Source: Squalus acanthias
Lineage: Eukaryota
DNA length: 64,000 nucleotides
Assembly: GCA_030390025.1 (NCBI GenBank)
Contig: JASTWF010000033.1
Location: 1,862,001-1,926,000, forward strand
Direction of reading: 5' to 3'
Shown here: positions 6,985-43,100 of the stretch, in pieces
How positions within the stretch are numbered: the stretch's first letter is position 1
Layout: each line of letters begins with the position of its first letter
The notes under the pieces: generated by a model
What the model saw: only the letters and a program-made list of their open reading frames with translations
Told to the model about the DNA's origin: nothing
Database searches by the model: none
Program-made: the position numbers and the translations under genes

Positions 6985-8379
6985 TGTGAAAAACAATACA
7001 CACCTGGCAGGATCCCGATACACTGTGAAACCCCATACACAACTGCCAGGATCCTGATTCACAGTGAAACCCCATACACACCTGACAGGACCCTGATACA
7101 CTGTGAAACCCCATACACACCTGACAGGACCCTGATACACCTGGCAGGATCCTGATACACTGTGAAACCCCGTACACACCTGGCAGGATCCTGACAAACT
7201 GTGAAACCCCATACACACCTGGCAGGATCCTGATACACTGTGAAACCCCATACACACCTGGCAGGATCCTGATACACTATGAAACCCCATACACACCTGG
7301 CATTTTCCTGATGCACTGTGAAACCCCACACACACCTGACAGGATCCTGATACACTGTGAAACCCCATACAAACCTGGCAGGATCCTGATACACTGAGAA
7401 ACCCCATACACACCTGGCAGGATCCTGATACACTGTGAAACCCCATACACACCTGGCAGGAACCTGATACACTGTGAAACACCGTACTCACATGGAAGGA
7501 TCCTGATACAATGTGAAACCCCATACACACCTGGCAGGATCCTGATACACTGTGAAACCCCATATACACCAGACAGGATCCTGATGCACTGTGAATCTCC
7601 ATACACACCTGGCAGGTTCCAGATTCACTGTGAAACCCCATACACACCTGGCATGATCCTGATACACTGTGAAACCCCATACACACCTGGCACTGTCCTG
7701 ATACACTGTGAAAACCAAGACACAAATGGCAGGATCCTGAAACACTGAAACCCCATACACACCTGGCAGGATTCTGATACACTGTGAAACCCCATACACA
7801 CCTGGCAGGATCCTGATACACTGTGAAACCCCATACACACCAGGCAGGATCCTGATACACTGTAAAACCACATACACACCTGGCAGGATCCTGATACACT
7901 GTGAAACCCCATAAACACAAGGCAGGATCCTGATACACTGTGAAACCACGTACACACAAGGCAGGATCCTGATACACTGTGAAATCACATACACACCAGG
8001 CAGGATTCTGATACACTGTGAAACCCCATACACACCTGGCAGGATCCTGATACACTGTGAAACCCCATACACACCTGGCAGGATCCTGATACACTGTGAA
8101 ACCCCATATACACCTGGCAGGATCCTGATAGACTGTGAAACCCCAAACACACCAGACTGGATCCTGATGCACTGTGAATCTCCAAACACACCTGGCAGGT
8201 TCCAGATTCAATGTGAAACCCCATACACAACTGGCATGATCCTGATACATTGTGAAACCCCATACACACCAGGCACTATCCTGATACACTGTGAAAACCC
8301 ATACACACCTGGCAGGATCCTGAAACACTGAAATCCCATACACACGTGGCAGGATTCTGATACACTGTGAAAACCCATG
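6985..8379 (+). repeat. 39-bp minisatellite (ACACACCTGGCAGGATCCTGATACACTGTGAAACCCCAT), block 1
   Basis: Tandem 39-bp units with occasional 37-bp variants; each unit has the palindrome CAGGATCCTG (BamHI site). Confidence 0.97.
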
Positions 8380-12260: not shown

Positions 12261-13867
12261 ATACATAGATACATAGATACATAGAAGATAGGAGCAGGAG
12301 TAGGCCATTCCGTCCCTTCGAGCCTGCTCCGCCATTTAATGAGATCATGGCTGATCCTCCAATTCAGTATCCCGTCCCCGCCTTCTCTCCGTAACCCTTA
12401 ACCCCTTTTGCCTGTAGAAATATATCTAATTCCCTCTTAAATATATTTAATGAGCTGGGGTACACTGCCCTCTGTGGCAATGAGTTCCACAGGTTCACTA
12501 CCCTCTGAGTGAAGAAATTCCCCCTCATTTCTGTCCTAAATGGTTTAGCCCTTATCCTTAAATTATGTCCTCTAGTTCTGTTCTCACCCACCAAGGGAAA
12601 CATTCCTTCTGCATCTAGTCTGTCTAGACCTGTCAGAATTTTATACACTTCTATGAGGTCCCCTCTCAATCTTCTAAACTCCAGTGTGTACATCCCTAAA
12701 CTACATAGTCTCTCCTCATAGGTCAATCCCGCCATTCCTGGTATCAGCCTGGTGAATCGCCGCTGCACCCCCTCCATGGCAAGAACATCTTTCCTCAGAT
12801 GAGGCGACCAAAACTGTACACAGTACTCGAGGTGTGGTCTCACCAGTGCCCTGTACAGCTGCAGCAAGGTATCCCTGTTCCTGTATTCCAACCCTTTTGC
12901 TATGAAGGCCAGCATACCGTTTGCCTTCTTGACCGCCTGTTGCACCTGCATGCTCGCCTTCAGTGACTGGTGTACAAGAACACCCAGGTCTCTCTGTACT
13001 TCCCCCTCTCCCAATTTATTGCCATTTAAATAATAATTTGCCCTCCCGTTCCTGCACCCAAGGTGGATAACTTCGCACTTGTCCACATTATAGTGCATCT
13101 GCCATTTATCCGCCCAATCACCCAGTCTGTCCAAATCGCTCTGGAGCTTCCTGGTCTCCTCCTCTGAGCCCACCCCCCCTCCTAGTTTAGTGTCGTCTGC
13201 AAATTTGGAAATGCTGCATCCGACTCCCTGATCCAGGTCATTAATGTAAATTGTGAACAGCTGGGGACCCAGGACAGATCCCTGTGGTACCCCACTTGTT
13301 ACTGCCTGCCATTCAGAAAATGAGCCGTTTATTCCAACTCTCTGTTTTCTATCTGACAGCTAGTTCTCTATCCACGTCAATACTTTCCCCTTTATCCCAT
13401 GAGCTTCAATTTTCCATGCTAATCTTTTATGTGGGACCTTATCGAAGGCCTTTTGGAAGTCCAGGTACACCACATCTACTGGCTCTCCCCCATCTATTTT
13501 ACCAGTTACTCCCTCAAAAAATTCCAATAGATTAGTCAAGCACGATTTACCCTTTGTAAATCCATGTTGACTCTGTCCTATCCTGTCCCCATTTGCTAAG
13601 TGCTCCGCTATTTCATCCTTAATGATGGACTCCAGCATTTTGCCCACAACTGATGTAAGGCTTACAGGTCTGTAAATACCTGCTTTTTCCCTACCCCCCT
13701 TTTTGAATAGTGGGGTAACGTTAGCTACCCTCCAATCCATGGGCACTGTTCCCGAGTCTAATGAATTCTGAAAAATCATACTTAGTGCATCCGCTATCTC
13801 TAGGGCCACCTCCTTCAGTACCCTAGGATGCATGTTATCAGGCCCTGGGGATTTGTCCGCCTTCAAT
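12261..13867 (-). mobile_element. CR1 LINE, subfamily A, 5'-truncated copy A2
   Basis: Reverse complement of A1; tail reads (GATACATA)n on +; premature TAG (W to stop) near 13360. Confidence 0.96.
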
Positions 13868-15642: not shown

Positions 15643-17426
15643 GGAAGTCGTAATGGGGAACAAGGAAATGGCAGATTAATTCAACCAGTACTTTGGTTCG
15701 GTGTTTACTGTGGAGGACACACACAACCTGCCGGAAATAAAAGGGGTCAGAGGATCTGGTAAGAGGGAGGAGCTGAGGGAAATCCTTATTAGTCGGGAAA
15801 AGGTATTGGGGAAATTGATGGGACTGAAGGCTGAAAAATCCCCGGGGCCTGATGGTCTGCATCCCAGAGTACTTAAGGAGGTGGCCTTGGAAATAGTGGA
15901 TGCATTGACGATCATTTTCCAACATTCCTTAGACTCTGGATCAGTTCCGATGGAGTGGAGGGTGGCCAATGTAACCCCTCTTTTTAAAAAAGGAGCGAGT
16001 GAGAAAGCAGGGAATTATAGACCGGTCAGCCTGACATCGGTCGTGGGTAAAATGATGGAAGCAATTATTAAAGATGTCATAACAGACCATTTGGAAAGTG
16101 GCGACATGATAGGTCCAAGTCAGCATGGATTTGTGAAAGGGAAATCATGCTTGACAAATCTTCTGGAATTTTTTGAGGATGTTTCCAATAGGGTGGACAG
16201 GGGGGAACCAGTAGATGTGGTGTATTTGGACTTTCAGAAGGCCTTCGACAAGGTCCCACACAAGAGATTGGTGAGCAAAGTTAAAGCACATGGGATTGGG
16301 GGTAATGTGTTGACGTGGATTGAGAACTGGTTGGCACACAGGAAACAAAGAGTAGGAGTAAATGGGTACTTTTCAGAATGGCAGGCAGTGACCAGCGGGG
16401 TACCGCAGGGTTCGGTGCTGGGACCCCAGCTGTTTACATTATATATTAATGATTTGGACGAAGGGATTAAATGTAATATCTCCAAATTTGCGGATGACAC
16501 TAAATTGGGAGGCAGTGTGAACAATGAGGAGGATGCTAGGAGGCTACAGAGTGACTTGGACAGGTTGGGTGAATGGGCAAATGTATGGCAGATGAAGTAC
16601 AATGTGGATAAATGTGAGGTTATCCACTTTGGTGGTAAAAATAGAGAGGCGGACTATTACCTGAATGGTGGCAGATTAGGGAAAGGGGACGTGCAACGAG
16701 ACCTGGGCGTCATGGTACATCAGTCACTGAAGGTGGGAATGCAAGTGCAGCAGGCAGTCAAGAAAGCAAACGGAATGATGGCCTTCATAGCAAGGGGATT
16801 TGAGTACAGGAGTAGGGAGGTGATGCTACAGTTGTACAGGGCCTTGGTGAGGCCACACCTGGAGTATTGTGCGCAGTTTTGGTCTCCTAACTTAAGGAAG
16901 GACATTCTTGCTATTGAGGGAGTGCAGCGAAGGTTCACTAGATTGATTCCTGGGATGGCCGGACTGACATATCAAGAAAGATTGGGTCAACTGAACTTGT
17001 ATCCTCTGGAGTTCAGAAGAATGAGGGGGGATCTTATAGAGACATTTAAAATCCTGACTGGTTTAGACAAATTAGATGCAGGCAGAATGTTCCCAATGGT
17101 AGGGAAAACTAGAACCAGGGGTCACAGTCTAAGGATTAAGGGGAAGCCATTTAGGACTGAGCTGAGGAGGAACTTCTTCACCCAGAGAGTGGTGAATCTA
17201 TGGAATTCTCTTCCACAGAAGGTTGTTGAGGCCAGTTCGCTAAATATATTCAAAAGGGAGTTAGATATAACACTCACAACTAAGGGGATCAAGGGGTATG
17301 GCGAGAAAGCAGGAATGGGGTACTGAGGTAGCATGTTCAGCCATGAACGCATTGAATGGCGGTGCAGGCTCGAAGGACCGAATGGTCTACTCCTGTACCT
17401 ATTTTCTATGTTTCTATGTTTCTATG
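15643..17426 (+). mobile_element. CR1 LINE, subfamily B, 5'-truncated copy B1
   Basis: 541-aa open RT plus C-terminal segment (15701-17326); 3' stem-loop and (TTTCTATG)3 tail; inserted at GGCAGG^ATCCTG of a monomer with no clear TSD. Confidence 0.96.
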
Positions 17427-20400: not shown

Positions 20401-23253
20401 CACCTGGCTGGATCCTGATACACTGAAAACCCATACACACCTGGAAGGATCCTGAACCACTGTGAAACCTCATACACACCTGGCAGGAACCAGGTACACT
20501 ATGAAACCCAATACAATCCTGGCAGGATCCTGATACACTGTGAAACCCCATACACACCTGGCAGGATCCTGATTCACTGTGAAACCCCATACACAACTGG
20601 CATGATCCTGATAAACTGTGAAACCCCATACACACCAGGCAGGATACTGATACACTGTGAAACCCCATACACACCTGGCAGGATCCTGATACACTGTGAA
20701 ACCCCATACACACCAGGCAGGAACCTGATACACTGTGAAACCCAATACACACCTGGCAGGATCCTGATACACTGTGAAACCCCATACACACCTGGCAGGA
20801 TCCTGATACACTGCGAAAACCCATACACACCTGGCAGGATTCTGATACACTGTGAAACCCCAGACACAACTGGCAGGATTCTGATACACTGAAACCCCAT
20901 ACACACCTGGCAGGATCCTGATACACTGTGAAAACGCTTACAAGCCTGGCAGGATCCTGATACACTGTGAAACCCCATACAAACCTGGCAGAATCCTGAT
21001 ACACTGTGAAACCCCATACACACCTGGCAGGATCCTGATACACTGTGAAAACCCATACACACCTGGCAGGTTTCTGATACACTGTGAAACCACATACACA
21101 CCTGGCAGGATCCTGATACACTGAAACCCCATTCACACCTGGCAGGATCCTGATACACTGTGAAAACCCATACAAACCTGGCATGAACCTGATACACTGT
21201 GAAACCCCATACACACCTAGCACTATCCTGATACCCTGTGAAACCCCATACACACCTGGCAGGATCCTGATACATTGTGAAACACCAAACAGACCTGTCC
21301 GTATCCTGATACACTGCGAAACCCTATACAAACCTGGCAGGATCCTGATACATTGTGAAACTCCATACTCACCTGGCATTATTCTGATATACTGTGAAAC
21401 CTAATGCACAACTGGCATTTTCCTGCTACAATGTGAAACCCCATACACACCTGGCAGTATCCTCATACACTTTGAAACCCCATACACACCTGGCAGGATC
21501 CTGATACACTGTGAAACCCCATACACACCTGGCAGGATCCTGATACACTGTGAAACCACATACACACCTGGCAGGATCCTGATACACTGTGAAACCCCAT
21601 ACACACCTGGCAGGATCCTGATAAACTGTGATACCCCATACACCCCTGGTAGGATCCCGATACACTGTGAAACCCCATACACACCTGGCAGGGTCCTGAT
21701 ATACTGTGAAACCCCATACACACCTGGCAGGATCCTGATACACTGTAAAACCCCATACACAGCTGGCAGAATCCTGAAACACTTTTAAAAACCATACACA
21801 CCTGGCAGGATCCTGATACACTGTTAAACCTCATACACACCTGGCAGCAACCAGGTACACTGTGAAACCCCATACACACCTGGCAGGTACCTGATACACT
21901 GTGAAACCCCATACACACCTGGCTGGATCCTGATACACTGAAAACCCATACACACCTGGCAGGATCCTGAAACACTGTGAAACCTCATACACACCTGGCA
22001 GGAACCAGGTACACTGTGAAACCCCATACAATCCTGGCAGGATCCTGATACACTGTGAAACCCCATACACACCTGGCAGGATCCTGATTCACTGTGAAAC
22101 CCCATACACAACTGGCATGATCCTGATACACTGTGAAACCCCATACACACCAGGCAGGATACTGATACACTGTGAAACCCCATACACACCTGGCAGGATC
22201 CTGATACACTGTGAAACCCCATACACACCAGGCAGGATCCTGATACACTGTGAAACCCAATACACACCTGGCAGGATCCTGATACACTGTGAAACCCCAT
22301 ACACACCTGGCAGGATCCTGATACACTGTGAAACACAATACACACCAGGCAGGATCCTGATACACTGTGAAACCCCATACACACCAGGCAGGTTCCTGAT
22401 TCACTGTGAAAACCCATATACACCAGGCAGGATCCTGATACACTGTGAAACCCCATACACACCTGGCAGGATCCTGATATACTGTGAAACCCCATAAAAA
22501 CCTGGCAGGATCCTGAAACACTGTTAAACCACATACACACCTGGCAGGATCCTGAAACACTGTTATACCCCATACACACCTGGCAGGATCCTGATACACT
22601 GAAAACACATACACACCAGCCAGGATCCTGATACACTGTGAAAACCCATACACACCTGGCAGGATCCTGATACACTGTGAAACCTCATACACACCTGCCA
22701 GGTACCAGATACACTGTGAAAACTCATACACACGTGTCAGGATCCTGATACACTGTGAAACCCCGTGCACACCTGGCTGGATCCTGATACACTGAAAACC
22801 CATACAATCCAGGCAGAATCCTGATATACTGTGAAAACCCATACACGCCTGGCAGGATCCTGATACATTGTGAAACCCCAAACACACCTGGCAGTATCCT
22901 GATACACTGCGAAACCCTATACACACCTGGCAGGATCCTGATACATTGTGAAACTCGATACTCACCTGGCAGGATTCTGATACACCGTGAAAACCAATAC
23001 ACACCTGGCAGGATCCTGTTACACTGTGAAACCCCATACACACCTGGCAGGATCCTGATACACTGTGAAACCGCATACACACCAGGCAGGAACCTGATAC
23101 ACCGAAACTCCACTCACACCTGACAGGACCCTGAAACATTGTGAAACCCCAAACAGACCTGGCATGATCCTGATACACTGCGAATCCCTTTCCACACCTG
23201 GCAGGATCCTGATACATTGTGAAACCTCATACAAACCTGGCAGGATCCTGATA
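17427..23253 (+). repeat. 39-bp minisatellite, block 4, with a ~1515-bp higher-order duplication
   Basis: Rare variant string gcattattctgatatactgtgaaacctaatgcacaactggcattttcctgctac at 19861 and 21376. Confidence 0.96.
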
Positions 23254-23713: not shown

Positions 23714-25594
23714 TCACGTCATGTATCGTGACATAAACCCAAGATCCCGATTGAGACCGTCTTCATGAGTGCGGAACTTGGCTATCAGTTTCTGCTCGAT
23801 GATTTTGCGTTGTCGTGTGTTTCTAAGGTTGCCTTGGAGAACGCTTACCCGCAGATCCGAGGCTGAATGTCCTTGACTGCTGAAGTGTTCCCCGACTGGG
23901 AGGTAACAATCCTGCCTGGCGATTGTTGCGCGGTGCTCGTTCATACGTTGTCTCAGTGTCTGCATGGTCTCGCCGATGTACCATGCCACGGTGCATTCTT
24001 TCCTGCAACGTATGAGGTAGACAACGTTGGCCGAGTCACATGAGTATGTACCATGTATCTGGTGGGTAGTGTCCTCACGTGTGATGGTGGTATCTGTGTT
24101 GATGATCTGGCATGTCTTGCAGAGTTTGCCATGGCAGGGTTGTGTGGTGTCGTGGTCGCTGTTATCCTGAAAGCTGGGTAATTTGCTGCGAACGATGGTA
24201 CTTCTGAGGTTAGGCGGCTGTTTGAAGGCAAGTAGTGGAGGCGTGGGGATGGCCTTAGCGAGGTGTTTGTCGTCATCGATGACATGTTGAAGGCTGCGAA
24301 GAACATGTCGTAGTTTCTCCGCTCCGGGGAAGTACTGGACGACGTAGGGTACCCTGTTGGTTGTGTCCCGTGTTTGCCTTCTGAGGAGGTCTATGCGATT
24401 TTTCGCTGTGGCCCGTCGGAACTGTCGATCGATGAGTCGAGCGTCATATCCCGTTCTTACGAGGGCGTTTTTCAGCGTCCGTAGGTGTCCATCGCGTTCC
24501 TCCTCGTCTGAGCAGATCCTGTGTATTCGCAGGGCTTGTCCATAGGGGATGGCTTCTTTAACATGGTTAGGGTGGAAGCTGGAGAAGTGGAGCATCGTGA
24601 GGTTGTCCGTGGGCTTGCGGTAGAGTGAAGTGCTGAGGTGTCCGTCTTTGATGGAGATTCGTGTGTCCAGGAATGAGACCGATTCTGAGGAGTAGTCCAT
24701 GGTGAGTTTGATGGTGGGATGGAACTTGTTTATGTTATCGTGTAGTCTTTTCAGTGATCCTTCGCCATGGGTCCAAAGGAAGAAAATGTCGTCGATGTAT
24801 CTGGTGTACAGCGTTGGCTGGAGGTCCTGTGCAGCGAAGAAGTCTTGCTCGAACTTGTGCATGAAGATGTTGGCGTATTGGGGTGCGAATTTGGTCCCCA
24901 TGGCTGTTCCGTGTGTTTGGGTAAAAAAATGGTTGTCGAAGGTGAAGACATTGTGGTCAAGGATGAAGCGGATGAGTTGTAGGATGGCGTCTGGAGATTG
25001 GCTGTTGTTGATGTTGAGTACTGAGGCTGTTGCAGCGATGCCGTCATCGTGGGGGATACTGGTGTAGAGTGCCGATACGTCCATCGTGGCAAGGAGTGTT
25101 CCTGGTTCAACTGGTCCGTGGGTGCTGAGTTTCTGTAAGAAGTCTGTAGTGTCGCGACAGAAGCTGGGGGTTCCCTGTACGATGGGTTTCAGAATGCCCT
25201 CGACGTATCCAGAGAGGTTCTCACACAGGGTTCCATTGCCTGATACGATAGGACGTCCGGGTGTGTTGGCTTTGTGTATCTTTGGGAGGCAGTAGAAGTC
25301 TCCCACGCGGGGAGTACGTGGGATGAGAGCGCGTAGGATGTTTTGAAGGTCTGGATCGAAGGTCTTGATCAGTCTATTGAGTTGGCGGGTGTGTTCTTTG
25401 GTCGGATCTGCGGGTAGCTGTCTGTAGTGTTCCTGGTTGTCCAGTTGTCGGTATGCTTCTTTACAATAGTCCGTTCTGTTCTGTATGACGATGGCTCCTC
25501 CTTTGTCCGCTGGTTTGATGACAATGTTGCGGTTGGTCTTGAGAGCGTGGATGGCGTTGCGTTGTGCTCGGGTGACATTCTGGACTGTCTTGAT
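23714..25594 (-). CDS. Penelope-like reverse transcriptase / GIY-YIG endonuclease, 5'-partial, open to the gap
   Basis: Frame of ORF 23714-25306 stays open up to 25594 (IKPADKGG); motifs LPKIHK, GRPIVS, DVSALYTSI, GTAMG, RYIDD, Cys-rich linker CHGKLCKTC, VVYLIRC...YIGET. Confidence 0.92.
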   Translation of the reverse strand: MKTVQNVTRAQRNAIHALKTNRNIVIKPADKGGAIVIQNRTDYCKEAYRQLDNQEHYRQLPADPTKEHTRQLNRLIKTFDPDLQNILRALIPRTPRVGDFYCLPKIHKANTPGRPIVSGNGTLCENLSGYVEGILKPIVQGTPSFCRDTTDFLQKLSTHGPVEPGTLLATMDVSALYTSIPHDDGIAATASVLNINNSQSPDAILQLIRFILDHNVFTFDNHFFTQTHGTAMGTKFAPQYANIFMHKFEQDFFAAQDLQPTLYTRYIDDIFFLWTHGEGSLKRLHDNINKFHPTIKLTMDYSSESVSFLDTRISIKDGHLSTSLYRKPTDNLTMLHFSSFHPNHVKEAIPYGQALRIHRICSDEEERDGHLRTLKNALVRTGYDARLIDRQFRRATAKNRIDLLRRQTRDTTNRVPYVVQYFPGAEKLRHVLRSLQHVIDDDKHLAKAIPTPPLLAFKQPPNLRSTIVRSKLPSFQDNSDHDTTQPCHGKLCKTCQIINTDTTITREDTTHQIHGTYSCDSANVVYLIRCRKECTVAWYIGETMQTLRQRMNEHRATIARQDCYLPVGEHFSSQGHSASDLRVSVLQGNLRNTRQRKIIEQKLIAKFRTHEDGLNRDLGFMSRYMT

Positions 25595-25794: not shown

Positions 25795-25827
25795 ATTTTA
25801 GTAATAAAGTAACATAAGGGTTAAGTC

Positions 25828-26772
25828 ATGACAGGAAGTCTCGGACCCGTTTCATGCTCCTCCTGTGCCATGTGGGAAACCAGGGACACTTCCAGTGTCC
25901 CTGACAACTACGTGTGCGGGAAGTGTGTCCAGCTGCAGCTCCTGACAGCCCGCATGGCGGTGCTGGAGCTGCGGGTGGACTCACTCTGGAGCATGCACGA
26001 TGCCGAGAACTCGGTGAATCGCTCATTTAGTGAGTTGTCCACACCGCAGGTAAAGGCTAGGACAGACAGTGAATGGGTGACCAAGAAGCAGGGCAATATC
26101 AGGAAGGTAGTGCAGGAGTCCCCTGTGGTCATCTCCCTCCAAAACAGGTATGCCGCTTTGGATACTGTTGGGGGAGATGGCCTACCAGGGGAAGGCACTA
26201 GCAGCCAGGTTCATGGCACCATGGCTGGCTCTGCTGCACAGCAGGGCGGGAAAAAGTGTGGTAGGGCTATAGTGATAGGGGACTCAATTGTAAGGGGAAT
26301 AGACAGGAGTTTCTGTGGCCGCAACCGAGATTCCAGGATGGTATGTTGCCTCCCTGGTGCAAGGGTCAAGGATGTCTCGGAGCGGCTGCAGAACATTCTG
26401 AAGAGGGAGGGTGAACAGCCAGCTGTCGTGGTGCATGTAGGTACCAACGATATAGGCAAAAACCGGGAAGAGGTCCTACAAGCAGAATTTAGGGAGCTAG
26501 GAGCTAAATTAAAAAGTAGGACCTCTAAGGTAGTAATCTCTGGATTGCTACCAGGGCCACGTGCTAATCAGAATAGAGAGAACAGGATAGTGAGATTGAA
26601 TACGTGGCTTGAGCAGTGGTGCAGGAGGGAGGGATTCAAATTCCTGAGGCATTGGAACCAGTTCTGGGGGAAGTGGGACCTGTACAAAAGGGACGGTCTG
26701 CACTTGGGCAGGACTGGAACCGATGTCCTCGGGGTAATATTTGCTAAAGCAGTTCGGGAGGATTTAAACTAA
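25828..26772 (+). CDS. CR1 ORF1p: N-terminal Cys zinc-finger/leucine-zipper region plus SGNH/GDSL-type esterase domain
   Basis: CSSCAMW...CGKC; VIGDSIVR, PGA, HVGTND, DGLHL esterase blocks; 314 aa. Confidence 0.92.
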   Translation: MTGSLGPVSCSSCAMWETRDTSSVPDNYVCGKCVQLQLLTARMAVLELRVDSLWSMHDAENSVNRSFSELSTPQVKARTDSEWVTKKQGNIRKVVQESPVVISLQNRYAALDTVGGDGLPGEGTSSQVHGTMAGSAAQQGGKKCGRAIVIGDSIVRGIDRSFCGRNRDSRMVCCLPGARVKDVSERLQNILKREGEQPAVVVHVGTNDIGKNREEVLQAEFRELGAKLKSRTSKVVISGLLPGPRANQNRENRIVRLNTWLEQWCRREGFKFLRHWNQFWGKWDLYKRDGLHLGRTGTDVLGVIFAKAVREDLN

Positions 26773-29757
26773 TATGGCAGGGGAATGGGAACCTATGTAG
26801 CGAAACAGGGGGAAGTAATATGCAGTCAGAAACAAATGTTAGAAGGGTGAGAAACAATAGGGGAAGGCCGAGTTAACAAAGGCAAGAAACACAAAGGGCC
26901 ATACTAAATCATAAGTCTAAAAGGACAAAGGATGTTAATAAAACAAGCCTAAAGGCTCTGTGTCTTAATGCAAGGAGTATCCGTAATAAGGTGGATGAAT
27001 TGACTGTGCAAATAAATGTTAACGGATACGATGTGATTGGGATTACAGAGACGTGGCTCCAGAACAATCAAGGCTGGGAACTGAACATCCAGGGGTATTC
27101 AATATTCAGAAAGGATAGAATAAAAGGAAAAGGGGGTGGGGTAGCATTGCTGGTTAAAGAGGAGATTAATGCAATAGCTAGGAAGGACATCAGCTTGGAG
27201 GATGTGGAATCAATATGGGTTGAGCTGCAGAACACCAAAGGGCAGAAAACGTTAGTGGGAGTTGTGTACAGACCTCCAAACAGCAGTAGAGAGGTGGGGG
27301 AGGGTATGAAACAGGAAATCAGAGGTGCGTGCAAAAAAGGCACGGCAGTTATCATGGGTGACTTTAATATGCATATAGATTGGGCTACTCAAACTGGAAG
27401 CAATACGGTGGAGGAGGATTTCCTGGAGTGTTTAAGGGATGGTTTCCTAAACCAATATGTTGAGGAACCAACTCGAGGGGAGGCCATCCTGGACTGGGTG
27501 TTGTGTAATGAGGAGGGAATAATCAGCAATCTTGTGGTACGAGGCCCCCTGGGGAAGAGTGACCATAGTATGGTGGAGTTCTACATTAGGATGGAGAAGG
27601 AAACAGTTAAGTCAGAGACCATGGTCCAGAACTTAAATAAGGGCAACTTTGAGGGTATGAGGCGTGAATTGGCGAGGTTAAATTGGCAAGCGATATTTAA
27701 GGGGCTATCAGTGGAAGGGCAATGGCAGACATTTAGAGATCGCATGGATGAACAACAACAATTGTACATCCCGGACTGGCGTAAAAATAAAAAAGGGAAG
27801 GTGGCTCAACCATGGCTAACAAGGGAAATCAGGGATAGTATTAAAACCAAGGAAGTTGCATACAAATTGGCCAGAAGTAGCAGCAAACCCGGGGACTGGG
27901 AGAACTTCAAAACTCAGCAGAGGAGGACGAAGGGTTTGATTAGGGCAGGGAAAATAAAATATGAAAGGAAGCTTGCAGAGAACATTAAAATGGACTGCAA
28001 AAGCTTCTATAAATATGTAAAAAGAAAGAGGTTAGTAAAAACAAACGTAGGTCCCCTGCAGTCGGAAACAGGGGAAGTCGTAATGGGGAACAAGGAAATG
28101 GCAGATCAATTGAACAAGTACTTTGGTTCGGTGTTTACTGTGGAGGACACACACAACGTGCCGGAAATAAAAGGGGTCAGAGGATCTGGTAAGAGGGAGG
28201 AGCTGAGGGAAATCCTTATTAGTCGGGAAAAGGTATTGGGGAAATTGATGGGACTGAAGGCTGAAAAATACCCGGGGCCTGATGGTCTGCATCCCAGAGT
28301 ACTTAAGGAGATGGCCTTGGAAATAGTGGATGCATTGACGATCATTTTCCAACATTCCTTAGACTCTGGATCAGTTCCGATGGAGTGGAGGGTGGCCAAT
28401 GTAACCCCTCTTTTTAAAAAAGGAGAGAGGGAGAAAGCAGGGAATTATAGACCGGTCAGCCTGACATCGGTCGTGGGTAAAATGATGGAAGCAATTATTA
28501 AAGATGTCATAACAGACAATTTGGAAAGTGGCGACATGATAGGTCCAAGTCAGCATGGATTTGTGAAAGGGAAATCTTGCTTGACAAATCTTCTGGAATT
28601 TTTTGAGGATGTTTCCAATAGGGTGGACAGGGGGGAACCAGTAGATGTGGTGTATTTGGACTTTCAGAAGGCCTTCGACAAGGTCCCACACAAGAGATTG
28701 GTGAGCAAAGTTAAAGCACATGGGATTGGGGGTAATGTGTTGACGTGGATTGAGAACTGGTTGGCACACAGGAAACAAAGAGTAGGAGTAAATGGGTACT
28801 TTTCAGAATGGCAGGCAGTGACCAGTGGGGTACCGCAGGGTTCGGTGCTGGGACCCCAGCTGTTTACATTATATATTAATGAATTGGACGAAGGGATTAA
28901 ATGTAATATCTCCAAATTTGCGGATGACACTAAATTGGGAGGCAGTGTGAACAATGAGGAGGATGCTAGGAGGCTACAGAGTGACTTGGACAGGTTGGGT
29001 GAATGGGAAAATGTATGGCAGATGAAGTACAATGTGGATAAATGTGAGGTTATCCACTTTGGTGGTAAAAATAGAGAGGCGGAATATTACCTGAATGGTG
29101 GCAGATTAGGGAAAGGGGAGGTGCAACGAGACCTGGGCATCATGGTACATCAGTCACTGAAGGTGGGAATGCAAGTGCAGCAGGCAGTCAAGAAAGCAAA
29201 CGGAATGATGGCCTTCATAGTAAGGGGATTTGAGTACAGGTGTAGGGAGGTGATGCTGCAGTTGTACAGGGCCTTGGTGAGGCCACACCTGGAGTAGTGT
29301 GCGCAGTTTTGGTCTCCTAACTTAAGGAAGGACATTCTTGCTATTGAGGGAGTGCAGCGAAGGTTCACTAGATTGATTCCTGGGATGGCCGGACTGACAT
29401 ATCAAGAAAGATTGGGTCAACTGAACTTGTATCCTCTGGAGTTCAGAAGAATGAGGGGGGATCTTATAGAGACATTTAAAATCCTGACTGGTTTAGACAA
29501 ATTAGATGCGGGCAGAATGTTCCCAATGGTAGGGAAAACTAGAACCAGGGGTCACAGCCTAAGGATTAAGGGGAAGCCATTTAGGACTGAGCTGAGGAGG
29601 CAACTTCTTCACCCAGAGAGTGGTGAATCTATGGAATTCTCTTCCACAGAAGGTTGTTGAGGCCAGTTCGCTAAATATATTCAAAAGGGAGTTAGATATA
29701 ACACTCACAACTAAGGGGATCAAGGGGTATGGCGAGAAAGCAGGAATGGGGTACTGA
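26763..29757 (+). pseudogene. CR1-B ORF2 (APE endonuclease plus RT), disabled
   Basis: NARSI, ITETWL, YRPP, GDFN, SDH and RT motifs; TAA at 26874, TAG at 29295 (TAT in B1), extra C at 29601. Confidence 0.9.
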
Positions 29758-29857
29758 GGTAGCATGTTCAGCCATGAACGCATTGAATGGCGGTGCAGGC
29801 TCGAAGGACCGAATGGTCTACTCCTGTACCTATTTTCTATGTTTCTATGTTTCTATG

Positions 29858-32800
29858 CCATGTGTGTATGGAGTTTCACAGTGTATCAGAATCCTGCCGG
29901 GTGAGTATGGAGTGTCACAATGTATCAGGATCCTGCCAGGTGTGTATAGGGTTTTGCAGTGTATCAGGATACTACCAGGTGTGTTTGGGGCTTCACAGTG
30001 TATCAGTATCCTGCCTGGTGTGTATCGGTTTTCAGTGTATCAGGATCCAGCCAGGTGTGTATGGGGTTTCACCGTATATCAGGATCCTGCCAGGTGTGTA
30101 TGGGGTTTCACAGTGTATCAGGATCCTGCCTGGTGTATATGGGGTTTCACAGTGTATTAGGATCCTGCCTGGTGTGTATGGGGTTTCAGTGTATCGGGGT
30201 CCTGCCAGGTGTGTATGGGGTTTCACAGTGTATCAGTATCCTGCCTGGTGTGTATGGGGTTTCGCAGTGTATCAGGATCCTGCCAGGTGTGTATGGGGTT
30301 TCTCAGTGAATCAGGATCCTGCCAGGTGTGTATGGGTTTTCACAGTGTATCACGATCCTGACACGTTTGTATGGGGTTTCACAGTGTACCTGGTTCCTGC
30401 CAGGTGTGTATGAGGTTTCACAGTGTATCAGGATCCTGCCAGGTGTACATGGGGTTTCAATGTATCAGGATCGTGCCAGGTGTTTATCGGGTTTCACAGT
30501 ATATCAGGATCCTGCCAGTTGTGTATGGGGTTTCACAGTGTATCAGGATCCTACCAGGTGTGTATGGGTTTTAACAGTGTTTCAGGATCCTGCCAGGTGT
30601 GTATGGGGTTTTACAGTTTATCAGGATCGTGCCAGGTGTTTATGGGGTTTCAAAGTATATCAGGATCCTGCCAGTTGTGTATGGGGTTTCACAGAGTATC
30701 AGGGTTCTACCAGGGGTGTATGGGGTATCACTGTGTATCGGGATCCTGCCAGGTTTGTATGGGGTTTCACAGTGTATCAGGATCCTGCCAGGTGTGTATG
30801 TGGTTTTACAGTGTATCAGGATCCTGCCAGGTGTGTATGGGGTTTCACAGTGTATCAGGATCCTACCAGGTGTGTATGGGTTTTAACAGTGTTTCAGGAT
30901 CCTGCCAGGTGTATATGGGGTTTTACAGTTTATCAGGATCGTGCCAGGTGTTTATGGGGTTTCAAAGTATATCAGGATCCTGCCAGTTGTGTATGGGGTT
31001 TCACAGAGTATCAGGGTTCTACCAGGGGTGTATGGGGTATCACTGTGTATCAGGATCCTGCCAGGTTTGTATGGGGTTTCACAGTGTATCAGGATCCTGC
31101 CAGGTGTGTATGTGGTTTTACAGTGTATCAGGATCCTGCCAGGTGTGTATGGGGTTGCACAGTGTATCAGGATCCTGCCAGGTGTGTATGTGGTTTCAAA
31201 GTGTATGAGGATCCTGCCAGGTGTGTATGGAGTTTCACAATGTATCAGGATCCTGCCAGATGTGTTTGGGGCTTCACAGTGTATCAGGATCCTGCCTGAT
31301 GTGTATGGGTTTTCAGTGTATCAGGATCCAGCCAGGTGTGTATGGGGTTTCACAGAACATCAGGATCCTGCCAGGTGTGTATGGGGTTTCACAGTGTATA
31401 AGAATCCTGCCTGGTGTATATGGGGTTTCACAGTGTATCAGGATCCTGCCAGGTGTGTATGGGGTTTCTGTATAAAGATCCTGCCTGGTATGTATGGTGT
31501 TTCACATTGTATCAGTATCCTGCCAGGTGTGTATGGGGTTTCACAGTGTATCAGGATCCTGCCAGGTGTGGATGGGGTTTCAGTGTATCGGGGTCCTGCC
31601 AGGTGTGTATGGGGTTTCACAGTTTATCAGTATCCTGCCTGGTGTGTATGGGGTTTCACAGTGTATCAGGATCCTGCCAGGTGTTTATGGGGTTTCAAAG
31701 TATATCAGGATCCTGCCAGTTGTGTATGGGTTTTCACAGTGTATCAGGATACTACCAGGGGTGTATGGGGTATCACAGTGTATCAGGATCCTGCCAGGTG
31801 TGTATGGGGTTTCACAGTGTATCAGGATCCTGCCAGGTGTGTATGGGGTTTCAGTGTATCGGGGTCCTGCCAGGTGTGTATGGGGTTTCACAGTGTATCA
31901 GGATCCTGCCAGGTGTGTATGGGGTTTTACAGTGTATCAGGATCGTGCCAGGTGTTTATGGGGTTTCACAGTGTGTCAGGATCCTGCCAGGTGTGTATGG
32001 GGTTTCACAGTGTATCAGGATCCTGCTTGGTGTGTATGGGGTATCACAGTGTATCAGGATCCTGTCAGGTGTGTATGGGGTTTCACAGTGTATCAGGATC
32101 CTGCCAGGTGTGTATGTGGTTTTACAGTGTATCAGGATCCTGCCAGGTGTGTATGGGGTTGCACAGTGTATCAGGATCCTGCCAGGTGTGTATGTGGTTT
32201 CAAAGTGTATGAGGATCCTGCCAGGTGTGTATGGGGTTTCACAGTGTATCAGGATCCTGCCTGGTGCATATGGGGTTTCACAGTGTATCAGGATCCTGCC
32301 TGGTGTATATGCGGTTTCACAGTGTATCAGGATCCTGCCACGTGTGTATGATGTTTCACAATATATCAGGATCCTGCCAAATGTGTATGGGGGATAACAG
32401 TGTATCATGATCCTGCCAGGTGTGTATGGGGTTTCACAGCGTATCAGGATCTTGCCAGGTTTGTATGGGGTTTCACAGTGTATCAGGATGCAGCCAGGTG
32501 TGTATGGGGTTTCACAGTGTATCAAGATCCTGCCAGGTGTGTATGGGGTTTCACAGTGTATTAGGATCCTGCCAGGTGTGTCTGGGGTTTCACAGTGTAG
32601 CAGGATCCTGCCAGGTGTGTATGGGGTTTTACAGTGTATCAGGATCCTGCCAGGTGTGTATGGGGTTTCACAGTGTATCAGGATCCTGCCAGGTGTGTAT
32701 GAGGTTTCACAGTGTTTCAGGATCCTGCCAGGTGTGTATGGGGTTTTACTGTGTATCAGGATCGTGCCAGGTGTTTATCGGTTTTCACAGTATATCAGGA

Positions 32801-35734
32801 ACCTGACAGTTGTGTATGGGGTTTCACAGTGTATCAGGATCCTACCAGGGGTGTATGGGGTATCACAGTGTATCAGGATCCTGCCAGGTGTGTATGGGGT
32901 TTCACAGTGTATCAGGATCCTGCCAGGTGTGTATGTGGTTTCACAGTGTATCAGGATCCTGCCAGGTGTGTATGGGGTTGCACAGAGTATCAGGATCCTG
33001 CCAGGTGTGTATGTGGTTTCAAAGTGTATGAGGATCCTGCCAGGTGTGTATGGAGTTTCACAATGTATCAGGATCTTGCCAGGTGTGTATAGGGTTTCGC
33101 AGTGTATCAGGATACTGCCAGGTGTGTTTGGGGTTTCACAATGTATCAGGATCCTGCCAGGTGTGTATGGGGTCTAACAGTTTATCAGAATCCTGCCAGG
33201 TATGTATGGGGTTTCACAGTGTAACAGGATCCTGCCAGGTGTGTATGGGGTTTCACAGTATATCAGGATCCTGCCAGGTGTGTATTGGGTTTCACGGTGT
33301 ATCAGGATCCTGCCATGTGTGTATGGGGTTTCACAGTGTATCAGAATCCTGCCAGGTGAGTATGGAGTTTCACAATGTATCAGGATCCTGCCAGGTGTGT
33401 ATAGGGTTTTGCAGTGTATCAGGATACTGCCAGGTGTGTTTGGGGCTTCACAGTGTATCAGGATCCTGCCTGATGTGTATGGGTTTTCTGTGTATCAGGA
33501 TCCAGCCAGGTGTGTATGGGGTTTCACAGTATATCAGGATCCTGCCAGGAGTTTATGGGGTTTCACAGTGTATCAGGATCCTGCCTGGTGTATATGGGGT
33601 TTCACAGTGTATCAGGATCCTGCCTGGTGTGTATGGGGTTTCACAGTGTATCAGGATCCTGCCAGGTGTGTATGGGGTTTCAGTGTATCAGGATCCAGCC
33701 AGGTGTGTATGGGGTTTCACAGTATATCAGGATCCTGCCAGGTATGTATGGGGTTTCTCAGTGAATCAGGATCCAGCCAGGTGTGTATGGGGTTTCACAG
33801 TGTATCGTGATCCTGCCAGGTGTTTATGGGGTTTCAAAGTATATCAGGATCCTGCCAGTTGTGTATGGGGTTTCACAGTGTATCAGGATTCTACCAGGGG
33901 TGTATGGGGTATCACCGTGTATCAGGATCCTGCCAGGTGTGTATGGGGTTTCACAGTGTATCAGGATCCTGCCAGGTGTGTATGTGGTTTTACAGTGTAT
34001 CAGGATCCTGCCAGGTGTGTATGGGGTTGCACAGTGTATCAGGATCCTGCCAGGTGTGTATGAAGTTTCACACTGTATCAGGATCCTGCCAGGTGTGTTT
34101 GGGGCTTCACAGTGTATCAGGATCCTGCCTGATGTGTATGGGTTTTCAGTATATCAGGATCCAGCCAGGTGTGTATGGGGTTTCACAGTATATCAGGATC
34201 CTGTCGGGTGTGTATGGCGTTTCACAGTTTATCAGGATCCTGCCTGGTGTATATGGGGTTTCACAGTGTATCAGGATCCTGCCTGGTGTGTATGGGATTT
34301 CAGAGTGTATCAGGATCCTGCCAGGTGTGTATGGGGTTTCAGTGTATCATGATCCTGCCTGGTATGTATGGTGTTTCACATTGTATCAGGATCCTGCCAG
34401 GTGTGGATGGGGTTTCACAGAGTATCAGCATCCTGCCTGGTGTGTATGGGGTTTCACAGTGTATCAGGATCCTGCCAGGTGTTTATGGGGTTTCAAAGTA
34501 TATCAGGATCCTGCCAGTTGTGTATGGGGTTTCACAGTGTATCAGGATTCTACCAGGGGTGTATGGGGTATCACAGTGTATCAGAATACTGCCAGGTGTG
34601 AATGGGGTTTCACAGTGTATCAGGATCCTGCCAGGTGTGTATGGGGTTTCAGTGTATCGGGGTCCTGCCAGGTGTGTATGGGGTTTCACAGTGTATCAGG
34701 ATCCTGCCAGGTGTGAATGGGGTTTCACAGTGTATCAGGATCCTGCCAGGTGTTTATGTGGTTTCACAGTGTATCACGATCCTGCCAGGTTTGTATGGGG
34801 TTTCACAGTGTACCTGGTTCCTGCCAGGTGTGTATGAGGTTTCACAGTGTATCAGGATCCTGCCAGGTGTGTATGGGGTTTCAGTGTATCAGGATCCAGC
34901 CAGGTGTGTATGGGGTTTCACAGTGTATCAGGATCCTGGCAGGTGTGTATGGGGTTTCACAGTGTATCAGGATCCTGCCAGGTGTGTATGGGGTATCACA
35001 GTGTACCTGGTTCCTGCCAGGTGTGTATGAGGTTTCACAGTGTATCAGGATCCTGCCAGGTGTGTATGGGTTTTAACAGTGTTTCAGGATCCTGCCAGGT
35101 GTGTATGGGGTTTTACAGTTTGTCAGGATCGTGCCAGGTGTTTATGGGGTTTCAAAGTATATCAGGATCCTGCCAGTTGTGTATGGGGTTTCACAGTGTA
35201 TCACGGTTCTACCAGGGGTGTATGGGGTATTACTGTTTATCAGGATACTGCCAGGTTTGTATGGGGTTTCACAATGTATAAGGATCCTGCCAGGTGTGTA
35301 TGTGGTTTTACAGTGTATCAGGATCCTGCCAGGTGTGTATGGGGTTGCACAGTGTATCAGGATCCTGCCAGGTGTGTATGTGGTTTCAAAGTGTATGAGG
35401 ATCCTGCCAGGTGTGTATGGAGTTTCACAATGTATCAGGATCCTGCCAGGTGTGTTTGGGGCTTCACAGTGTATCAGGATCCTGCCTGATGTTTATGGGT
35501 TTTCAGTGTATCAGGATCCTGCCAGGTGTGTATGGGGTTTCACAGTGTATCAGGATCCTGCCAGGTGTGTATGGGGTATCACAGTGTACCTGGTTCCTGC
35601 CAGGTGTGTATGAGGTTTCACAGAGTATCAGGATCCTGCCAGGTGTGTATGGGTTTTAACAGTGTTTCAGGATCCTGCCAGGTGTGTATGGGGTTTTACA
35701 GTTTATCAGAACGTGCCAGGTGTTTATGGGGTTT
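29858..35734 (-). repeat. 39-bp minisatellite, block 5, opposite orientation
   Basis: GTGTGTATGGGGTTTCACAGTGTATCAGGATCCTGCCAG units; 312-bp (8-unit) duplication marked by agggttctaccagggg at 30701 and 31013. Confidence 0.96.
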
Positions 35735-38775: not shown

Positions 38776-39723
38776 CTAGTTTAAATGCTCCCGAACTGCT
38801 TTATCAAAAATTACCCCGAGAACATCAGTTCCATCTTTGCACAGGTGTAGACCGTCCCTTTTGTATAGGTCACACCTACCACAAAACTGGTTCCAATGCC
38901 TCAAAAATTTAAAACCCTCCCTCTTACACCACTGCTCAAGCCACGTATTTAGCCTAACTATCCTGTTCTCTGTACTCTTACTAGCACGTGGCACTGGTAG
39001 TAATCCAGAGATTACTACCTTCGAGGTCCTACTTTTTAGCTTGGCTCCTAACTCCCTAAATTCTACTTGTAGGACCTCTTCCCTTTTTTTAGCTACGTCG
39101 TTGGTACCAACATGTATCACGACAACTGGCTGTTCCCCCTCCCCCTCCAGAATGTTCTGCACCCGCGCCGAGACATCCTTCACCCTTGCACCAGGGAGGC
39201 AACATACCATCCTGGAGTCTCGGTCGCGACCACAGTAACCCCTATCTATTCCCCTTACAATCGAATCCCCTATTACTATAGCCCTGCCACTCTTTTTCCC
39301 TCCCTTCTTTGCAACAGAGCCAGTCATGGTGCCATGAGCCTGGCTGCTGGTGCCTTCCCCCGATGAGTCATCCCCCCCGACAACAGCACCTAAGGCGGTG
39401 AACCTGTTGCTAAGGGAGACAACCCCAGGGGATTTCTGCACTACCTTCCTGCCCTTGCTCTGCCTTTTGGTCACCCATGTACTATCTACGCTGGCCTTAA
39501 CCTGCGGTGTGACCAACTCACTAAATGTGTTATCCACAACCCTCTCAGAATCGTGGATGCTCCAAAGTGAGTCCATCCGCAGCTCAAGGGCCGTCATGCG
39601 GTCCCACATGAGCTGCAGCTGGACACACTTCCCGCACACATGGTTGTCAGGGACACAGGAAGCTTCCCTGATTTCCCACATGTTACAGGAGGAGCATGAC
39701 ACAGGTCCGAGATCTACTGCCAT
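38776..39723 (-). CDS. CR1 ORF1p (zinc finger plus SGNH esterase), 315 aa
   Basis: CSSCNMW...CGKC; IGDSIVR, HVGTND, DGLHL; clearly homologous to ORF1 at 25828. Confidence 0.93.
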   Translation of the reverse strand: MAVDLGPVSCSSCNMWEIREASCVPDNHVCGKCVQLQLMWDRMTALELRMDSLWSIHDSERVVDNTFSELVTPQVKASVDSTWVTKRQSKGRKVVQKSPGVVSLSNRFTALGAVVGGDDSSGEGTSSQAHGTMTGSVAKKGGKKSGRAIVIGDSIVRGIDRGYCGRDRDSRMVCCLPGARVKDVSARVQNILEGEGEQPVVVIHVGTNDVAKKREEVLQVEFRELGAKLKSRTSKVVISGLLPVPRASKSTENRIVRLNTWLEQWCKREGFKFLRHWNQFCGRCDLYKRDGLHLCKDGTDVLGVIFDKAVREHLN

Positions 39724-40174: not shown

Positions 40175-43100
40175 CTCTCCCGACACTGGCCTCTGCAAAA
40201 AAAGCCCGCGAAAGCGAGTTTAAATACTCACTGTGCTGCTGCTCTCTCCGCTCCCGACACTGGCCTCTGCAAAAAAAGCCCGCGAAAGCGAGTTTAAATA
40301 CTCACTGTGCTGCTGCTCTCTCCGCTCCCGACACTGGCCTCTGCAAAAAAAGCCCGCGAAAGCGAGTTTAAATACTCACTGTGCTGCTGCTCTCTCCGCT
40401 CCCGACACTGGCCTCTGCAAAAAAAGCCCACGAAAGCGAGTTTAAATACTCACTGTGCTGCTGCTCTCTCCGCTCCCGACACTGGCCTCTGCAAAAAAAG
40501 CCCGCGAAAGTGAGTTTAAATACTCACTGTGCTGCTGCTCTCTCCGCTCCCGACACTGGCCTCTGCAAAAAAAGCCCGCGAAAGCGAGTTTAAATACTCA
40601 CTGTGCTGCTGCTCTCTCCGCTCCCGACACTGGCCTCTGCAAAAAAAGCCCGCGAAAGTGAGTTTAAATACTCACTGTGCTGCTGCTCTCTCCGCTCCCG
40701 ACACTGGCCTCTGCAAAAAAAGCCCGCGAAAGCGAGTTTAAATACTCACTGTGCTGCTGCTCTCTCCGCTCCCGACACTGGCCTCTGCAAAAAAAGCCCG
40801 CGAAAGCGAGTTTAAATACTCACTGTGCTGCTGCTCTCTCCGCTCCCGACACTGGCCTCTGCAAAAAAAGCCCGCGAAAGCGAGTTTAAATACTCACTGT
40901 GCTGCTGCTCTCTCCGCTCCCGACACTGGCCTCTGCAAAAAAAGCCCGCGAAAGTGAGTTTAAATACTCACGGTGCTGCTGCTCTCTCCGCTCCCGACAC
41001 TGGCCTCTGCAAAAAAAGCCCGCGAAAGCGAGTTTAAATACTCACTGTGCTGCTGCTCTCTCCGCTCCCGACACTGGCCTCTGCAAAAAAAGCCCGCGAA
41101 AGTGAGTTTAAATACTCACTGTGCTGCTGCTCTCTCCGCTCCCGACACTGGGCCTCTGCAAAAAAAGCCCACGAAAGTGAGTTTAAATACTCACTGTGCT
41201 GCTGCTCTCTCCGCTCCCGACACTGGCCTCTGCAAAAAAAGCCCGCGAAAGCGAGTTTAAATACTCACTGTGCTGCTGCTCTCTCCGCTCCCGACACTGG
41301 CCTCTGCAAAAAAAGCCCGCGAAAGCGAGTTTAAATACTCACTGTGCTGCTGCTCTCTCCGCTCCCGACACTGGGCTCTGCAAAAAAAGCCCACGAAAGC
41401 GAGTTTAAATACTCACTGTGCTGCTGCTCTCTCCGCTCCCGACACTGGCCTCTGCAAAAAAAGCCCGCGAAAGTGAGTTTAAATACTCACTGTGCTGCTG
41501 CTCTCTCCGCTCCCGACACTGGCCTCTGCAAAAAAAGCCCGCGAAAGCGAGTTTAAATACTCACTGTGCTGCTGCTCTCTCCGCTCCCGACACTGGCCTC
41601 TGCAAAAAAAGCCCGCGAAAGCGAGTTTAAATACTCACTGTGCTGCTGCTCTCTCCGCTCCCGACACTGGCCTCTGCAAAAAAAGCCCGCGAAAGCGAGT
41701 TTAAATACTCACTGTGCTGCTGCTCTCTCCGCTCCCGACACTGGCCTCTGCAAAAAAAGCCCGCGAAAGTGAGTTTAAATACTCACGGTGCTGCTGCTCT
41801 CTCCGCTCCCGACACTGGCCTCTGCAAAAAAAGCCCGCGAAAGCGAGTTTAAATACTCACTGTGCTGCTGCTCTCTCCGCTCCCGACACTGGCCTCTGCA
41901 AAAAAAGCCCGCGAAAGTGAGTTTAAATACTCACTGTGCTGCTGCTCTCTCCGCTCCCGACACTGGCCTCTGCAAAAAAAGCCCGCGAAAGTGAGTTTAA
42001 ATACTCACTGTGCTGCTGCTCTCTCCGCTCCCGACACTGGCCTCTGCAAAAAAAGCCCGCGAAAGTGAGTTTAAATACTCACTGTGCTGCTGCTCTCTCC
42101 GCTCCCGACACTGGCCTCTGCAAAAAAAGCCCGCGAAAGCGAGTTTAAATACTCACTGTGCTGCTGCTCTCTCCGCTCCCGACACTGGCCTCTGCAAAAA
42201 AAGCCCGCGAAAGTGAGTTTAAATACTCACTGTGCTGCTGCTCTCTCCGCTCCCGACACTGGCCTCTGCAAAAAAAGCCCGCGAAAGTGAGTTTAAATAC
42301 TCACTGTGCTGCTGCTCTCTCCGCTCCCGACACTGGCCTCTGCAAAAAAAGCCCGCGAAAGTGAGTTTAAATACTCACTGTGCTGCTGCTCTCTCCGCTC
42401 CCGACACTGGCCTCTGCAAAAAAAGCCCGCGAAAGCGAGTTTAAATACTCACTGTGCTGCTGCTCTCTCCGCTCCCGACACTGGCCTCTGCAAAAAAAGC
42501 CCGCGAAAGTGAGTTTAAATACTCACTGTGCTGCTGCTCTCTCCGCTCCCGACACTGGCCTCTGCAAAAAAAGCCCGCGAAAGTGAGTTTAAATACTCAC
42601 TGTGCTGCTGCTCTCTCCGCTCCCGACACTGGCCTCTGCAAAAAAAGCCCGCGAAAGTGAGTTTAAATACTCACTGTGCTGCTGCTCTCTCCGCTCCCGA
42701 CACTGGCCTCTGCAAAAAAAGCCCGCGAAAGTGAGTTTAAATACTCACTGTGCTGCTGCTCTCTCCGCTCCCGACACTGGCCTCTGCAAAAAAAGCCCGC
42801 GAAAGTGAGTTTAAATACTCACTGTGCTGCTGCTCTCTCCGCTCCCGACACTGGCCTCTGCAAAAAAAGCCCGCGAAAGTGAGTTTAAATACTCACTGTG
42901 CTGCTGCTCTCTCCGCTCCCGACACTGGCCTCTGCAAAAAAAGCCCGCGAAAGTGAGTTTAAATACTCACTGTGCTGCTGCTCTCTCCGCTCCCGACACT
43001 GGCCTCTGCAAAAAAAGCCCGCGAAAGCGAGTTTAAATACTCACTGTGCTGCTGCTCTCTCCGCTCCCGACACTGGCCTCTGCAAAAAAAGCCCGCGAAA

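Follow-up and report, generated by a model that had tools for sequence, protein, structure and literature searches.

Canonical sites of -1 ribosomal frameshifting consist of an X XXY YYZ heptamer in zero-frame phase, where Y is A or U and Z is not G, with a spacer of typically 5–8 nt between the heptamer and the stimulator (PMC3458567). GGGAAAC has likewise been described as an efficient slippery site (PMC3458567), and synthetic G-quadruplexes placed 6–8 nt away were reported to raise -1 frameshifting to as much as about 7% (PMC3919603). For LINE retrotransposons, the translation of ORF2 has been called an open question, for which the described answers are reinitiation in L1 and SART1 (PMC3894237). 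Frameshifting in a LINE would not be unprecedented, because ORF2 of the non-LTR retrotransposons TRE5-A and TRE3-A of Dictyostelium is said to require a -1 frameshift (PMC5911963). With regard to ORF1 products, ORF1p of the zebrafish element ZfL2-1 was described as a self-associating, membrane-binding esterase (PMC3905857).

The route of ORF2 translation in canonical CR1 is not addressed in the accessible sections of two studies (PMC13343379, PMC4120745). The word 'frameshift' is absent from the main text of four papers dealing with CR1 or ORF1 (PMC13343379, PMC4120745, PMC4316615, PMC3905857), and 'CR1' was not found in the accessible text of a 2016 review on frameshifting (PMC5009743). Within the full-text literature that could be searched, which did not extend to the original chicken and turtle CR1 papers, no proposal of CR1 frameshifting was found. 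These original papers reportedly present the ORFs as closely spaced or overlapping, and frameshifting may have come up in them.

The window analysed here is a stretch of 64,000 nt from the 3.7-Gb genome of Squalus acanthias. It contains a CR1 LINE at about 25800–29860, made of an esterase ORF1 and an endonuclease-RT ORF2, the 5' end of which is hidden by an assembly gap. ORF1 (25828–26772, + strand, 314 aa, ATG at 25828) codes for a Cys-rich N-terminus and an SGNH/GDSL esterase (PF13472, E 1.7e-13), and its nearest named relatives come from sharks and rays (sawshark protein, 74%). The C-terminus reads ...REDLN-stop, encoded by GAG GAT TTA AAC TAA. ORF2 (26952–29757, +) displays an APE endonuclease, starting at about 26952 (PF03372, E 6.4e-14), then a reverse transcriptase (PF00078, E 8.1e-33), and is followed by a 3' UTR with a short TTCTATGT-type repeat tail (29758–29858, +). 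In its esterase ORF1, its APE-RT ORF2 and its short repeat tail the element resembles canonical vertebrate CR1 with an esterase (type IV) ORF1 (PMC13343379, PMC4120745). Related matches in the genome amount to tens of thousands (58,803 first-look candidates). A second, divergent CR1 is present in the window, with an ORF1 76% identical to the first one; TTTAAAC is also located at the end of this ORF1 (38779–38785, − strand), in the context CAT TTA AAC TAG and followed by the same G-run. The ORF2 of the window copy is broken by a TAG at 29295–29297 and by a frame break near 29600. Together with the TAA at 26874 discussed below, this makes it a dead copy, and the signal described here is that of the family.

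An earlier note on this DNA had claimed that ORF1 ends on TTTAAAC in X XXY YYZ phase, that the -1 frame starting at 26763 is the ORF2 frame, and that a G-rich tract follows, and the analysis confirmed all three. The slippery heptamer T TTA AAC, which conforms to the X XXY YYZ definition, is located at 26763–26769 (+), with the ORF1 stop codon TAA directly 3' of it (26770–26772, +). The frame starting at 26763 holds both ORF2 domains (PF03372 and PF00078) and is shared by the ATG at 26820, the TAA at 26874 and the GTG at 26991, the latter 228 nt downstream. The sequence TGGCAGGGG is found at 26775–26783, downstream of the heptamer; the tract at 26776–26789 (+) is the candidate stimulator, and a G-run is present at this place in 11/11 copies examined. 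A basic linker of 63 codons, beginning with FKLIWQG, leads in the -1 frame into the endonuclease (26763–26951, +). The ATG at 26820–26822 (+) does lie in the ORF2 frame, as reported before; it is a feature of this subfamily, is missing from other subfamilies and is not conserved across them. For the GTG at 26991, the frame and the distance of 228 nt were correct, but this codon is not a plausible ORF2 start: it lies inside the endonuclease and cannot start an intact enzyme because it is located after the first endonuclease motif, LCLNARS. It was thus rejected as start codon. TTTAAAC alone is common, with more than 100 occurrences in the window, mostly in satellite. The position, phase and conservation of the heptamer exceed chance, whereas the 7-mer by itself does not.

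The conservation of the heptamer was analysed in 118 loci, namely 120 loci of the same genome and the second CR1 of the window after removal of 3 duplicates. TTTAAAC was detected within 2 nt of the alignment-predicted ORF1 end in 115/118 of these loci, which are best matches and favour young copies, and a stop codon directly follows the heptamer in 115 of the 118. A search of the genome with a Leu-Asn-stop/G-run pattern, allowing any Leu and Asn codon, gave 17,167 matches, and 1 with the reversed control. Exact TTTAAAC was present at 16,256 of these 17,167 junctions, a number which mostly mirrors a few master lineages.

A sharper test was done with 10 subfamily representatives, the ORF1 3' ends of which are roughly 55–90% alike in the pairs scored, and which share ancestry, so that counts among them do not equal independent events. 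Over the last 165 codons of ORF1 and 20 nt beyond, the longest invariant nucleotide run consists of TTTAAAC and the TA of the stop (9 nt), the next one being of 6 nt. The terminal Leu is the only one of 10 invariant Leu columns where a single codon is used, and both Asn codons occur in each of the two further invariant Asn columns. The first T of the heptamer is kept even though the residue of its codon varies (D, G, H, A). As counterpoints, one codon is also kept in 6 other of the 47 degenerate invariant columns, and the third base in 23/115 variable columns; what constitutes the signal is the uninterrupted run in slippery phase, and not any single base. In the comparison with neighbouring synonymous sites that the earlier note had proposed, the heptamer came out as more conserved among the 10 representatives. 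In CR1 ORF1, the terminal TTTAAAC is a sequence signal in the phase of a slippery site, conserved beyond protein-coding need.

An ORF2 start located upstream, inside ORF1, was considered and rejected, as the -1 frame upstream of the heptamer is closed within 1–5 codons in 10/11 copies and holds no ATG in any of the 11. Downstream, the linkers measure 126, 141, 147, 150, 165, 189 or 198 nt, all multiples of 3; beyond FKLx(W/C)QG or FKLNSGG they can hardly be aligned, but all are in frame. Among 113 loci with an endonuclease nearby, the length of the linker was divisible by 3 in 99 and the linker was open in 86. No stop codon occurs in the -1 frame in 8/9 representatives, against 2–6 and 4–11 stops in the other frames, and shuffled linkers were open in 0.6–11% of trials. 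In the young subfamily L110-L144 the linker is open in 23/23 copies. The first in-frame Met of this subfamily is encoded at codon 166 in 18 copies and at codons 111–157 in 5, downstream of the endonuclease motifs NARS (codon 48) and TETW (codon 74). CTG and TTG are present before its endonuclease, and with these a non-AUG start of ORF2 is possible there. An in-frame ATG before the endonuclease was found in several subfamilies (the window's own, L087, L101, L102 and L121), L102 showing a SART1-like TAATG in the -1 frame. The stop-start codon varies with the subfamily (ATA, AAA, GTA, AAT, ATT or ATG). At the level of the family, the ORF2 frame opens at the heptamer and stays open up to the endonuclease without a conserved AUG, the window copy having its own stop. 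The open -1 frame from heptamer to endonuclease, suggested earlier as a check, was thereby found in 86/113 loci and in all 23 copies of L110-L144.

The TAA in the linker (26874–26876, +), pointed out in the earlier note, is indeed present, but its fixation in the family did not hold. In the 25-base context around 26874, the TAA version has a single exact match in the genome, which is the window copy, against 1,374 for the AAA version. TAA was found at this place in 0/48 subfamily copies picked by protein search, where copies were counted individually. Contigs of four public runs, which stem from four coded organisms, show A at 26874 over their entire depth. Five further loci with TAA (L011-L015), in a variant linker context, were retrieved by a DNA search which skips common words. 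Four of them share their flanks and are segmental duplicates of one insertion, and the fifth is a separate insertion. The TAA lineage that these loci had suggested was rejected on this ground and on that of the protein-selected copies. Exact-match counts and protein-selected copies both indicate a copy-specific stop.

A stimulator was sought downstream of the heptamer. The 101 nt located 3' of it in the window copy fold no better than shuffled sequences (z +0.81), and z ranged from −2.17 to +0.67 in 11 copies, with only one below −2; folding was purely thermodynamic. A local 3' hairpin or pseudoknot was rejected on these scores, in line with the doubt about a pseudoknot raised in the earlier note. 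No conserved long-range pairing partner was found within the flanks. Pairing of the G-run with a CCCCTG about 1.27 kb downstream was discarded, being the best match in the window's subfamily only and not conserved. The G-run starts 9–14 nt after the heptamer in 11/11 copies, slightly over the typical 5–8 nt, and one copy reads GGAGGG. According to G4Hunter it falls within the top 3% of windows in 6/11 copies and is weak in L101 (rank 0.37); ViennaRNA predicted a G-quadruplex in 2/11 copies, two-tier only. Since no stem-loop or pseudoknot is predicted 5–8 nt downstream, the junction would count as a variant and not as a canonical -1 frameshift site. The G-rich tract is the candidate stimulator and the least certain part of the explanation.

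Programmed -1 frameshifting on TTTAAAC, producing an ORF1-ORF2 fusion of ~1,310 aa, is considered the probable function of the junction, with a probability of roughly 75%. The tRNA-Leu and tRNA-Asn on UUA AAC would slip to UUU AAA. Most ribosomes would terminate at the next codon and release the 314-aa ORF1p, and a minority would shift by -1 and read ...REDLN-LIWQG..., followed by the basic linker, the endonuclease and the RT. From the coordinates, the fusion would reach about 1,310 aa (314 plus about 995 codons). The expected outcome would be a Gag/Gag-Pol-like excess of ORF1p over the fusion, and infrequent shifting may suffice for a LINE. In place of a classical pseudoknot, the G-rich tract would act as stimulator, either by forming a weak G-quadruplex or by binding a protein, and the adjacent stop might contribute. 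Frameshifting itself is what we infer; the fusion proposed in the earlier note gains support from the linker stop, which is not fixed, and from the heptamer, conserved beyond its synonymous neighbours. A point against the fusion is that ORF2p can work without ORF1, because many vertebrate CR1s have lost ORF1 (PMC13343379).

The DNA evidence covers this genome and close relatives, and what follows on LN, GN and KN ends in other animals was deduced at the protein level. Among the matches listed, 84/120 ORF1 homologues end in LN, which corresponds to 84/92 of those reaching the last esterase motif. The named LN-ending relatives belong to sharks, rays, turtles, lizards, a frog, a snake, a sturgeon and a swallow. 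Two stingray gene models (P0032 and P0121) read ORF1-FKLxxQG-endonuclease, and a painted-turtle model (P0143), running in the other frame, reads QKSFKLG at the junction. FKL in these models together with the LN ends would therefore imply T TTA AAY in those animals. Considering the residue before LN was a weak test: in 2/84 no codon for it ends in T, but similar scores were obtained for positions −6 and −7.

A profile search added 132 new representatives, of which 95 include the last esterase motif and 58/95 end in N. These 58 distant ends comprise 42 LN, 9 GN, 2 KN and 5 others; LN, GN or KN thus account for 53/58. An XXA slippery codon can encode L, G, K or P, and one of these four precedes an internal Asn in 23% of cases. 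Gln stands before 8/9 GN ends, fitting CAG GGA AAC, and never before LN in these sets. In a tree of 75 esterase domains, which is midpoint-rooted, leaves out 20/95 for length or doubtful ends and does not include the window protein as a row, LN ends are spread over three separate clades, a fourth one uniting the GN and KN ends with a single LN. One clade is devoid of any LN, GN or KN end, and the named turtle, lizard, snake, bird and sturgeon relatives group in one clade apart from it. From the proteins only, it is predicted that the distant GN and KN ends correspond to G GGA AAC and A AAA AAC. Searches for junction DNA in other sources gave little: one metagenome scan returned nothing and another 22 distant loci, of which 9 were inspected and none of these 9 had a UUUAAAC junction; scans of genome contigs from other taxa delivered nothing usable, scans of viral contigs weak GDSL matches or none, and tblastn against plasmids and phages no match. 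That CR1s, which dominate among the retrotransposons of most vertebrates, and their distant animal relatives may generally produce a Gag-Pol-like esterase-endonuclease-RT fusion through an X XXA AAC-stop cassette, in U, G and A versions, maintained for more than 400 million years and stimulated by a G-rich tract where a pseudoknot would be expected, is a tentative extension, to which we give slightly less than an even chance.

Some of these features would also be expected if ribosomes stopped at the ORF1 stop codon and restarted there or immediately downstream in the -1 frame, on an AUG or a non-AUG codon, with the heptamer as a pausing or positioning element. The stop always adjoins the heptamer, and for SART1 and L1 such termination-reinitiation has been described as the route (PMC5972666, PMC2881922, PMC3894237). 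It needs no pseudoknot, an open linker is expected as well, and the TAATG in the -1 frame of L102 and the linker ATG of other subfamilies point in the same direction. However, neither the exact X XXY YYZ phase nor the apparent GN/KN swaps would be expected from it, and no start is conserved, the stop-start codon varying between subfamilies as given above. The motif TGGGA, which we take to be TURBS-like, has no fixed distance either: it stands at −96 in 6/11 copies, where it corresponds to Trp-Asp codons, and is absent in one. On balance, reinitiation appears an unlikely route for these elements.

Frameshifting may also be the ancestral mode, with the linker-ATG subfamilies, including that of the window, additionally or mainly making free ORF2p via reinitiation or leaky scanning. 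The ATG at 26820 is found in the linker of every open window-subfamily copy examined (0/47 lack it), and ORF1-less CR1s do exist (PMC13343379). Nevertheless, the 19 codons from heptamer to ATG stay open and keep FKLxWQG, as in subfamilies devoid of this ATG. Such a combination of both routes is considered quite improbable. Slightly less probable still would be a non-translational role, either a need of ORF1p for a Leu-Asn C-terminus, or an AT-rich word acting in RNA packaging, transcription or polymerase slippage. The last esterase helix is capped by LN, which persists at about 30% identity, and other roles are conceivable for AT-rich words. A protein need, however, fixes neither TTA among six Leu codons nor the preceding T. 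A further point against a non-translational role is that no joints or indels are listed at the junction in the contigs of four runs, although contigs drop rare variants and the RNA status of the runs is a guess.

If programmed frameshifting applies, the most widespread vertebrate LINE would follow a retrovirus-like expression plan, in which the ratio of ORF1p to ORF2p is set by the frameshift. The RT would then be tied to an esterase ORF1p which, judging from the properties shown for ZfL2-1, is self-associating and membrane-binding. The start codon often missing from CR1 ORF2 would find an explanation and its annotation would be corrected, and the junction would represent a natural frameshift site without evident pseudoknot.

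Compared with known systems, the CR1 junction combines features of LINEs and viruses. As in SART1, with its UAAUG coupling, and in L1, where reinitiation is described, the LINE RNA is bicistronic and ORF2 depends on translation of ORF1, and L102 likewise displays a TAATG; in contrast, SART1 and L1 yield a separate ORF2p and have no slippery heptamer, and the CR1 junction has no conserved start codon (PMC5972666, PMC3894237). TRE5-A and TRE3-A belong to the L1 clade and their ORF1 is unrelated to that of CR1. HeT-A of Drosophila, another non-LTR element, is said to need a frameshift within gag, but has no RT (PMC5009743). With respect to synthetic G-quadruplex stimulators (PMC3919603), the G-tracts of CR1 are weaker and irregular. 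Viral sites differ from that of CR1, where the heptamer is directly followed by the zero-frame stop, and then by a G-run instead of a stem-loop or pseudoknot, none being predicted 5–8 nt downstream (PMC3458567). The family-wide and deeply conserved signal carried by this dead copy is best read as a programmed -1 frameshift site without a classical stimulator. G GGA AAC of SRV-1, another viral -1 site, matches the version predicted for the GN ends (PMC3458567). The heptamer and phase of CR1 are identical to U UUA AAC of IBV and coronaviruses, and in both cases an abundant protein is encoded upstream and the polymerase in the -1 frame (PMC3458567).

Several other retroelements were found in the window. 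A separate reverse transcriptase with a C-terminal GIY-YIG-like region (23714-25594, minus strand), recognised by eye as putatively Penelope-like, adjoins the 200-N gap located immediately upstream of the CR1 element. Three 5'-truncated fragments of CR1 ORF2 were also identified, all without the junction, at positions 8378-9869 (plus), 12826-13866 (minus) and 15644-16864 (plus). A short-period satellite of about 37 bp (about 21985-23226 and 29860-33000) borders the elements on either side. The region of about 40200-48850 consists of a tandem array with more than 110 near-identical copies of a 74-bp unit, each of which harbours TTTAAAC on the minus strand; inside these units the heptamer is a chance occurrence.

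Public annotations of the ORF1 homologues were partly erroneous. Host- or bacterial-gene labels, such as hydroxyacid oxidase 2, ribosomal protein S24 and Pseudomonas GDSL hydrolase, were wrongly given to CR1 ORF1s or to chance fusions in two stingray gene models (P0032, P0121) and two other protein entries (P0008, P0028).

Distant esterase ORF1s, which are probably L2-type, are present in five metagenome loci (L061:1990, L062:1894, L063:448, L072:1642 and L065:2049). In four of them ORF1 ends with TGA-CT(A/G/C), and in L063 and L065 it lies in the frame of the endonuclease motif. UGA-CUA is a readthrough context, and readthrough may be a route joining the ORFs in sister LINEs.

Start codons were also observed close to the CR1 ORF1 stop. 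One base past the stop, an out-of-frame ATG opens an 8-codon ORF (26774-26800, plus strand); this ATG is common to two other subfamilies and missing from the rest. In the own-genome subfamily represented by locus L102, ORF1 ends with TTTAAAC followed by TAATG. This junction combines the heptamer with a stop-start in the -1 frame that resembles the UAAUG of the LINE SART1.
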